Source of the DNA: Gammaproteobacteria bacterium
Lineage (GTDB): Bacteria > Pseudomonadota > Gammaproteobacteria > JAJFKG01
Direction: 5' to 3'
DNA length: 64,000 nucleotides
Assembly: GCA_965116795.1 (NCBI GenBank)
Contig: OZ220716.1
Span: forward strand, 1,802,503-1,866,502
Below are positions 2 to 2,432 of the stretch, piece after piece. Every line of letters starts with the position of its first letter. The first letter of the stretch is position 1. The notes beneath the pieces are model-generated. The model did no database searches. It was not told the DNA's origin and worked only from the letters and a program-made list of their open reading frames with translations. The position numbers and the translations under genes were made by a program.

Positions 2-1135
2 TCTGATGATGAGTCTGGTGAGGGACGCGCATATGAATTTTCTGTTGATGGAAAGAAATACAGCCATCGTATCGCCAAGCCGTTCTGTATCCAAGAAGAA
101 CATTTCACCACATGCCGTGCTAATCAACAACGAGACGATAATGATTGCGGTTATTGGGCTGTATACAATGCAATCATGTTAGTGTGTACTGGACGAGATG
201 ATTATCTTAAACAGTTCTCTGAGAGACGATATGCTAATACATTACGATGCTATTTCGACAGGATAATAGCAGATGATGAATTGCTTGAAGATTATAAAGT
301 GCAAGGTATGGGCTCTATGTTAACCAACAGTATCAGTAGTCTCTTTACGACTTCTTGTATCAACCCAATGTTGGAGTCTACAAAGAAAAGTGTACTGAAA
401 ACCGCAGCCGGGTTATCAACATTACAACGACGACGTCAAAATGAGCTGACAAAAGCCTGCGCAGCAGCAGATTTAGAGCGCGTAAAGCAATTGGTAGCAC
501 AAGGCGCAAGTTTAGTGATGCCTGATGAAACCGGTCAACAACCATTAGCTGCTACCCTCTGGGCACTTGCATTTAATGTCTTACGGTATTTAGAAGAAAA
601 TGTATCGTACACAAATGAAGATTGGCAGTGTGTGGCTGCATGGATTCAAGAGAGACACCAGCGGATAATACCAGCATTCGAGGAGTTTACACCGCGTTTT
701 ATTCCAGCGGTGAATAGCTATGTTAAAGGAAATTCGGCGTTTCGGAAGACGGTAGTCAATACACACGAGGCAGCGTTAATGTATAGAAATTTCGATTTCA
801 AACTGGACAGACACGAAATACATGAGGACAGTGCATTCGAACAACTCAGCACGTATATAACAGAGACACATGTTATGAAGCAGGCGCTGTTATGGGAGGA
901 AGTTATGCAGACTTTGGCATGCAATTGTAGCGAACAAAATTTATGGATAATGCATATGCAGGCGCCAGCAGAAGTACCCGAGAGGCAAGGGCGATGGGAG
1001 ATAATACATAAAGACGACGTTCACAAATTAAGGAGTCACAACCCAGGGATACACACGGACGTACCAACGTTAAAAAACAGCGCGGTGGAGCAGAATCTGT
1101 GCAAAGCGAATATAAAAGCGTACAGACCAACATAA
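2..1135 (+). CDS. Effector-like protein, 5' truncated by the window edge: CE-clan (Ulp1/C48-like) cysteine protease motif, ankyrin-like repeat, atypical C-terminal domain
   Basis: The frame is open from base 2. It encodes QQRDDNDCGYWAVYNAIML (Q..D..DCG.W catalytic Cys motif of CE-clan DUB/deSUMOylases), then ELTKACAAADLERVKQLVAQGASLVMPDETGQQPL (ankyrin-like). Confidence 0.65.
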   Translation, partial: SDDESGEGRAYEFSVDGKKYSHRIAKPFCIQEEHFTTCRANQQRDDNDCGYWAVYNAIMLVCTGRDDYLKQFSERRYANTLRCYFDRIIADDELLEDYKVQGMGSMLTNSISSLFTTSCINPMLESTKKSVLKTAAGLSTLQRRRQNELTKACAAADLERVKQLVAQGASLVMPDETGQQPLAATLWALAFNVLRYLEENVSYTNEDWQCVAAWIQERHQRIIPAFEEFTPRFIPAVNSYVKGNSAFRKTVVNTHEAALMYRNFDFKLDRHEIHEDSAFEQLSTYITETHVMKQALLWEEVMQTLACNCSEQNLWIMHMQAPAEVPERQGRWEIIHKDDVHKLRSHNPGIHTDVPTLKNSAVEQNLCKANIKAYRPT

Positions 1136-1438
1136 ACGAGGAATAAACCTCCCCGGCATCTAGGGAAGCTATGGGCTGTGTCCCAATATCCATGGATAGC
1201 GATAGTCCCAGCGATGGTAGCATCAGAGGTATGGCAGCCGATCAAGCAAAGGAACGAACGAGAGGCATGGTTGCGTGAAGCAGTGGGAGAAATGTTTAAC
1301 ATAACGAACCCTTTCCATGGTTTAGCTAAGCTATACCCCGCATTATGTAATACGATGGCGGAGTTATACACGGTACACGGGATCGAGGTACAAACTCCAG
1401 TGGAGACAGTTCACTCAAGTTCCCGACAGACCCCGTAA
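1136..1438 (+). pseudogene. In-frame continuation of the effector-like gene beyond a single TAA (1133-1135)
   Basis: Same reading frame as 2..1135 and open to TAA at 1436-1438. Shares the skewed codon usage and ends in a Ser/Thr/Glu-rich tail (VQTPVETVHSSSRQTP). Confidence 0.55.
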
Positions 1439-2432
1439 TGGCAACTAAGCAGTAATCGTTTATGTGCTCATATTGGAGACCCGCTCGACACCACTGTCGC
1501 CATCGTTTTACGTACTGAATCAAGCGTTGTTGACTCGCTTGTTGCTCATAAAGCTTATTCAGTCGTAAAGTAAATTTATCAAGTGTCGGTTTGGCAATGT
1601 TAATATGATTATTGCTGCCTAGTTCATAACCTAAAAACGTAAAACATCGCCCTTTATCAAGGCGCCCTATTTCTGTTTTATCTGGATGTTTGGTCAACTC
1701 AAGTTGATTTAGCACTTCGTTTTGCACTTTAATCGCTTTTTTCAGATCCCAGCGTTTATGCGCTAAGATACACCAATCATCCATATAACGCACATAAAAA
1801 ATTCCCTTTAAATTTGTTATTGCATCATCTAATGGCTTTAATGCTAATGCTCCCATTAACGGAGATAATGGGCACCCAAGAGCAATACCGCGCGTAACTT
1901 CCACATAATTTCCATCAACATCAAGCAAATGGTTCATATACTTCTCAAGTAAGTGTAATACCAGAGGATCATTGATTGTTTGCTTACACAATGCCATCAA
2001 GTGCCAATGCGAAATGCTTTTATAATAACGTTTAACATCGGTACGCATAAAAAATCGATAATGTTGCACATTGGCATATACGTTATTGATTGCTGCTTTT
2101 AAACCACCATTACCTTTCAAGTGAAAACAGCGTGATGAAATTTGCGATGATAAATGCTCACCTAATACAATACTCATCGCTTTTAATACCAATGCATCAA
2201 TGGCCGACCATACTGATATTTTTTTACCGTCAATTCGATATTGCTTAACGGGCTCAAAGGTAAAATTGCCAGATTTCAACGTTTGCTGTAGTTGCGGTTT
2301 GTATGTCGACCAGTTTAACCGTACGTCCCATATATCACTATTTGCCCCAGCATGCTTGCGCCGCTGACAAACCCACTGGTAACTTTGCTCAAGCACATTA
2401 TCACGTACGATCTGATCAATGATTGCATCCAT
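1326..2432 (-). CDS. Reverse transcriptase (RNA-directed DNA polymerase), stand-alone
   Basis: RT motifs FMRTDVKRYYKSI, GIALGCPLSPLMGAL, YVRYMDDW and FTFLGY. No recognisable maturase or endonuclease domain. The C-terminal tail overlaps the convergent gene. Confidence 0.93.
   Translation of the reverse strand: MDAIIDQIVRDNVLEQSYQWVCQRRKHAGANSDIWDVRLNWSTYKPQLQQTLKSGNFTFEPVKQYRIDGKKISVWSAIDALVLKAMSIVLGEHLSSQISSRCFHLKGNGGLKAAINNVYANVQHYRFFMRTDVKRYYKSISHWHLMALCKQTINDPLVLHLLEKYMNHLLDVDGNYVEVTRGIALGCPLSPLMGALALKPLDDAITNLKGIFYVRYMDDWCILAHKRWDLKKAIKVQNEVLNQLELTKHPDKTEIGRLDKGRCFTFLGYELGSNNHINIAKPTLDKFTLRLNKLYEQQASQQRLIQYVKRWRQWCRAGLQYEHINDYCLVAITGSVGNLSELSPLEFVPRSRVPCITPPSYYIMRGIA

Follow-up and report, generated by a model that had tools for sequence, protein, structure and literature searches.

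A UG4 reverse transcriptase locus that may diversify an adjoining effector-like gene without a template repeat

The reverse transcriptases (RTs) of DGRs are marked by an SQ motif, and group II intron RTs bind their own RNA in cis. In the DGR of the BPP-1 type, AAY is the context of the most frequent RT errors (PMC12875486; here and below, papers are cited for the accessible part of their text). UG4 is a class 2 UG/Abi RT to which the accessible text of PMC2602772, PMC9226505 and PMC8934634 assigns no function. Indeed, the accessible text of these papers and of PMC4244168 describes UG4 as function-unknown, often located beside fimbrial genes and without defence enrichment. Fimbrial genes lie nearby in 66% of one UG4 subgroup (PMC8934634), one Francisella genome holds two UG4 copies with unrelated 3' flanks (PMC2602772), and several UG/Abi RTs use ncRNAs (PMC9226505). 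A diversification role for UG4 had no match among the open-access main texts searched.

In this study we focus on a 64,000-nt stretch of a gammaproteobacterial genome (hereafter the window), at one end of which an earlier note had proposed a lone diversifying RT pointing head-on into an effector-like gene. The features of the locus are the following, in window coordinates.

2..1135, + strand: 3' part of the effector-like gene, with weak LRR and ankyrin matches.
650..1469, + strand: variable tail, with no protein alignment to the paralog tail, purine-rich synonymous sites, and orphan among proteins.
1133..1135, + strand: truncating in-frame stop of the effector-like gene.
1136..1438, + strand: open frame past the stop (100 codons), sharing 113 nt with the RT 3' end.
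1326..2432, - strand: UG4-class RT of 368 aa, with YMDD at 1776-1787 and GCPLSP at 1860-1877 (PADLOC profile, Pfam RVT_1, tree).
1470..1508, - strand: RT boundary segment, with the final WxxWxxxG motif.
1508..1568, - strand: conserved RNA structure in the RT coding sequence, with an outer stem, an invariant hairpin (1544-1554) and a second hairpin (1521-1541).

The RT is a member of the UG4 family and not a DGR RT. The PADLOC RT_UG4 profile matches it with E 2e-107, against 2e-37 for the next family, and in a quick tree it falls among 41 other UG4 rows, separated from 12 viral RTs that have the SQ motif (SH-aLRT 100). Its reading frame is intact, as had been claimed, with YMDD and GCPLSP both present; across the family GCPLSP recurs in 26/41, and the protein carries an intact YxDD and no extra fused domain. 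The description of a lone RT with neither template repeat nor avd-like gene stands for this single-copy gene; what the earlier note had not recognised is its family and the RNA structure that it embeds. UG4 RTs occur in 2/61 and 7/401 genomes (source genome included), a single-protein search of species genomes gave one locus, and viral contigs gave one UG4 locus among 40. A sequence search of solved structures matches group II intron RTs best (E 2e-33), with the G2L4 RT at 2e-17. The NCBIfam group II maturase model scores 119 bits, against a cut-off of 300, and no Rfam match, group II ribozyme domain V/VI included, was obtained in window 1-4000, in agreement with the reported absence of group II intron ends. 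Defence RT family profiles (DRT/retron) also score below their cut-offs.

The effector-like gene encodes 2,997 aa in total and starts at window -7858, that is 7.9 kb ahead of the window. The RT does converge on it, and the claimed overlap fails for the gene proper: since the gene stops at 1133-1135, a position at which the contig from run X2 has the same letters as the window, the RT overlap is limited to the frame 1136-1438. The source locus has no fimbrial neighbour, and the LRR/ankyrin effector-like gene and EamA stand there instead. A search for DotA gave no match anywhere, controls included, and so carries no information. Directly upstream lies a tandem paralog of 3,357 codons (genome 1784502-1794636, G000:C1), which shares 84-86% identity with the effector-like gene over most of the body, to about window 650. 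Protein alignment of the two tails found none beyond chance (score 32 versus a shuffle mean of 32), and the final 170 nt of both are colinear (0/1000 shuffles). The paralog tail, likewise pyrimidine-poor at synonymous sites, is followed by a 39-nt RT remnant (genome 1794598-1794636), an 87% copy of window 1470-1508 without the RNA structure. When tail 650-1132 was compared with 1.84 billion protein representatives, the only match was itself. The stretch is present in 6/7 sequencing runs, and the long contigs from four runs (X2 and X4 among them) showed no other letters in the tail, contigs being a source that drops rare variants. A contig from run X5, of another study (depth 7; L092:11240-12536), joins window 1033 to -263; this junction is a 1,297-nt duplication or circle, or a chimera.

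The base composition of the tail had been the starting point of the earlier note, and its counts reproduce: codon-position-3 T (T3) of 0.412, 0.21, 0.242 and 0.130 in the four bins, ATA in 12/15 Ile codons, GAC in 5/6 Asp codons, a drop of total T to 12% at 961-1080 and 17% at 1081-1200, and three minus-strand ORFs, with 3, 9 and 12 stops per frame versus 9.6, 14.2 and 17.9 upstream. The T3 deficit at 956-1435 exceeds chance (z = -5.7 after amino-acid correction), and just 3 of 10,712 genome windows of 160 codons each are as low. Two parts of the interpretation did not survive. T was said to be lost gradually towards the RT; instead there is one step, with a change point at 584 (range 380-662), and four-fold T in the three tail bins is 0.10, 0.12 and 0.16. 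The loss was also said to concern T alone, equivalent to A on the RT strand; across the step, four-fold T falls from 0.28 to 0.14 (p 0.001), C declines too, from 0.19 to 0.09 (p 0.01), G rises from 0.18 to 0.37 (p 1e-5), and A does not change. Low T3 with high G3 is also found in genes of the same genome that have no RT match (starts 1099259 and 1355610; tail of 1931144). Since T and C both fall and RT-free genes reach similar values, composition by itself proves nothing. In the last of these genes (G000:C1:1931144-1935637), T3 falls and G3 rises in a comparable step that sets off the final 320 codons. The shift is absent from two same-genome genes that share the ankyrin-like domain and have no RT remnant, a comparison of two genes with two in which the shifted genes are duplicates of each other. 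Taken together with its stop codon, the purine-rich orphan tail is likely the scar of a diversification process.

To place the locus within its family, we used the best 80 of 561 metagenome UG4 loci, to which plasmid and genome loci were added; 102 loci had a locatable final motif, and 41 were left after dereplication at 80% and with at least 800 nt downstream. The downstream neighbour is convergent in 27 of these 41, co-oriented in 12 and uncalled in 2, and upstream neighbours split 14/14 with 13 uncalled; genes were called by ORF heuristics, and the co-oriented calls at L006, L017 and L023 are perhaps shadow frames. Homologous RTs had been expected to be consistently convergent, which holds for the 27 and fails as a rule, with 12/41 co-oriented and the clearest mutation clusters in co-oriented adhesins. 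A scan of 40 neighbours (31 from the 41-locus list and 9 hand-picked) gave a Pfam match in 13 and none in 27. The matched ones are three PEP-CTERM proteins, three eCIS core proteins, an fn3, a pore-forming barrel, a U-box, a DUF1554-like protein and three unrelated enzymes/transporters, so that 10/13 are surface or effector proteins. Moreover, Salmonella UG4 RTs are convergent on inverse autotransporters, and those of E. coli and E. albertii precede the gene that closes fimbrial operons. The source plasmids of the Salmonella loci L115, L116 and L096 contain 4-6 places that match an RT plus inverse-autotransporter query.

These neighbours bear on the view that the RT is of defence type (DRT-like), its embedded RNA serving as template for a cDNA or a repeat that has nothing to do with the neighbour. 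UG4 has been filed with the UG/Abi RTs, a group with several ncRNA-using members, and AbiE toxin-antitoxin genes lie 1.5-4 kb from the RT. We hold this view to be very improbable, given the lack of UG4 defence enrichment in the accessible text of PMC9226505, the mostly surface or effector nature of the Pfam-matched neighbours, and the mutation clusters described below, which it leaves unexplained. An AbiEi/AbiEii pair and an AbiEii fragment stand among tRNA-Leu(CAA) repeats; tRNA-Leu(CAA) and two partial repeats (window 3626-3655, 4291-4390 and 7123-7286) mark island ends.

The border between RT and neighbour is sharp in most close RT pairs: counted from the first W of the final motif, similarity ends at about +26 to +37 nt in 14/21 pairs, and in the remaining 7/21 extends to +60 to +199; across the family the usual end point is +27 to +35 nt. 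The downstream DNA is unrelated in many close pairs. Similarity often resumes further downstream, and the target, where traceable, is a colinear hyperdiverged homologue; colinear diverging targets include L102/L106, L095/L115, the G181 duplicate and a block in genome G358. That genome has seven copies of a repeat-bounded element (L117, L118, L164-L168), inserted at different sites, in which a kinase/ankyrin-like gene converges on a UG4 RT. The block lies about 240-325 nt past the motif and differs in all seven copies, with changes at all four bases. The copies differ by patches of 4-12 nt with abundant indels, also within decayed RTs, which is an unusual decay pattern and could partly be an assembly artefact; the flanking housekeeping ORFs are intact. 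The strand-specific depletion predicted for homologues finds partial agreement: four-fold T/(T+A) is lower in 13/17 of the convergent neighbours having control genes (p 0.005), and against it, adhesins are richer in four-fold A than their operons in 7/7.

Another reading is that of a passenger or selfish element, that is a mobile or hitchhiking RT that sits beside fast-evolving secreted genes, uses the structure for its own copying, and at the source locus adjoins a tail whose composition was simply acquired. The seven G358 copies, the two Francisella copies with unrelated 3' flanks (PMC2602772), the RT-free genes of similar composition and the tRNA-Leu island ends near the locus all speak for it. 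We nevertheless consider it quite unlikely: it leaves unexplained both the downstream orientation bias (27 convergent, 12 co-oriented) against the even 14/14 upstream, and the clustering of 12/12 and 3/3 substitutions with a skewed spectrum in the plasmids considered next but one.

Within the RT coding sequence, the segment at 1508-1568 shows a local fold with z = -3.2, and under synonymous shuffling 19/37 loci have excess folding at -60 to -12, versus 1-8 in other windows. We aligned 50 sequences, 28 of the 37 loci and 22 others, picked for similar register. In this alignment 81.8% of cells are paired, a value reached by 0/500 shuffles and compared with 31-46% in slid controls, and 18/24 pairs show changes on both sides; the consensus was derived from the fold of one member, and RNAalifold recovered 14 of the pairs. 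The invariant hairpin is GCUU/GAGC. CTT and GAG are fixed in 50/50 sequences, and codons at the other invariant Leu and Glu positions do vary. Because of the G-U pairs, we infer that the structure acts as RNA on the RT strand. The structure model gives a single strong hit in the source genome, the same position with weak to moderate scores in distant UG4 clades, and weak matches (E 0.05-0.3) in the enteric clade with the mutation clusters. Orphan RT ends that keep the full structure occur at L022:2812-2889, L071:5680-5757, L122:3664-3738 and L096:1270-1366, and it is possible that they are trans-acting target marks. Other candidates were rejected. Conservation is lacking for a hairpin at the W motif, and the RT strand has no more terminator-like sites at 1137-1168 than chance would give (5 versus 2.4 +/- 1.8 expected). 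A supposed likeness of the embedded element to group II domain V had no Rfam match behind it. Perfect hairpins downstream are not enriched either (8 versus 7 of 41).

Near-identical relatives provide the most direct view of change behind the RT. Over 8,927 nt, the E. albertii plasmids L104 and L105 are separated by 12 substitutions, and 12/12 lie at +175 to +372 past the RT final motif, as a 198-nt patch in the adhesin that follows the RT (assuming uniform placement, p 8e-14 for the ORF); two single-base indels are elsewhere. Six goat E. coli plasmids have three variable sites in 6,900 nt, all within the zone (+278, +343 with three alleles, and +351). Pooled with one site from L102/L103, these give 16 sites, or 17 allele pairs. 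C/T pairs are found in 0/17, versus 115/274 control differences (p 2e-4); A takes part in 12/17 (p 0.05) and G in 13/17, hence the spectrum is unpolarised. AAY context is seen at 12/16 sites versus 303/1,004 in the background (p 3e-4). The clusters stem from two plasmid sets of one clade, about 30% identical to the source RT. In L102/L103, 1/5 differences falls within the zone and 4/5 outside; the plasmid pairs L100/L101 and L107/L108 and the metagenome pairs L006/7, L022/23, L030/32 and L048/49 are identical, and a broken-RT control (L172/L173), identical over 8,241 nt, is too close to inform.

In the convergent pair L072/L077, 8 changes fall in the 142 nt past the motif, 6 of them from A in one copy, and the RT has 8 in 800 nt. 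Pooling five convergent pairs, transversions make up 43/63 changes versus 108/224 in controls (p 0.006), with no A bias (30/63 versus 105/224). AAY is not depleted on the RT strand downstream of 27 convergent loci (o/e 1.22 versus 1.10 in the mirror), nor in the source tail. A long-run adenine ratchet, as the earlier note had it, finds no support in either result, and of its clustered, base-specific variants there remain the A-biased ones behind the RT in near-identical relatives, other copies changing at all bases.

Changes can also become clustered when alleles are imported and adhesins are under selection. More broadly, an exchange of cassettes would keep the RT end and the RNA structure as a conserved anchor, while variable tips or whole genes would be swapped by recombination or by RT copies of other RNAs, the clusters being imported allele patches. 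Several observations fit: the unrelated DNA downstream of many close RT pairs, the one gene that L077 has in addition to those of L072, the orphan RT ends with full structure, and at the source locus a composition change that is a step, with two tails unalignable as protein. C/T transitions, though, would be expected among imported alleles and are absent from the 17 pairs, which counts against exchange; several targets are colinear homologues, and the tail has no donor homologue among the 1.84 billion proteins. We regard this explanation as rather unlikely.

The AAY-centred, A-biased changes also resemble the output of a DGR (PMC12875486), which brings up a conventional DGR whose template repeat (TR) is remote. 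This is highly improbable and largely refuted at the source locus. The earlier note had seen no template repeat and no avd-like gene in the window, and both absences extend to the genome: genome-wide blastn (word size 7) finds no second tail copy in the single-contig source genome, and PF22296 has no match there (a weak one in 1/14 controls). The missing SQ motif and the separate clade argue in the same direction. For the enteric plasmids, a search of 5,426 E. coli genomes, the goat plasmids' own host included, gave neither a second copy of the goat patch nor a template for it, and each mutation patch, that of E. albertii too, occupies one place per plasmid.

On balance, we think it probable from sequence comparison that the UG4 RT locus is a TR-less diversifier of the adjoining surface or effector gene. 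Transcription would read through past the end of the RT gene, and the RT would bind the embedded structure in its own read-through RNA, in cis. Error-prone cDNA of the RNA part downstream of the RT would then be made and would recombine back, replacing the DNA at the same locus. As such cDNA overwrites its own source, template and target would be one sequence. Errors would probably favour template adenines in AAY, without restriction to them. The proposal that an RT read-through transcript antisense to the target is the template keeps its core, with a lone RT, no template and clustered changes behind the RT in relatives, and loses the antisense geometry as a rule.

A wider claim, for which the chances seem to us a little short of even, is that UG4 forms a second class of diversity generator, which evolved independently of the first. 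It would consist of one gene, combining an RT with its loading RNA and using its own read-through as template; targets would be adhesins, PEP-CTERM proteins, eCIS effectors and secreted effectors in either orientation, and orphan RNA copies would reach further targets. If true, this would give a first function to UG4, which has been without an assigned one since 2008, account for its fimbrial link, and reveal a diversifier invisible to TR/VR-based finders. It would also account for orphan tips on adhesins and effectors in several phyla and could offer a single-gene tool for targeted mutagenesis. The RNA element and the boundary mark precise sites at which the locus can be mutated.

Compared with known systems, the source RT resembles group II intron RTs and the G2L4 RT in its best solved-structure matches, and differs from group II introns by its score below the NCBIfam cut-off, its lack of Rfam match and its single genome copy. 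With the DGR of the BPP-1 type (PMC12875486) the likeness is one of RT-linked variation of binding domains, structured RNA adjoining the diversified sequence, and the adenine/AAY bias in enteric UG4 relatives. The UG4 locus differs in having no TR/VR pair and no Avd, in carrying GCPLSP instead of SQ and in its separate clade; moreover, its RNA is embedded in the coding part of the RT gene, its targets stand in either orientation, and its changes go beyond A. The UG4 locus would work like a DGR, yet falls outside the DGRs by TR, Avd and clade. Finally, the locus agrees with UG4 as described in PMC2602772, PMC9226505 and PMC8934634 in its profile match, its place in one clade with fimbrial members, the lack of a fused domain and the lack of defence enrichment. 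An embedded RNA structure, convergent effector and PEP-CTERM targets, and local hypermutation are absent from the accessible text of these papers.
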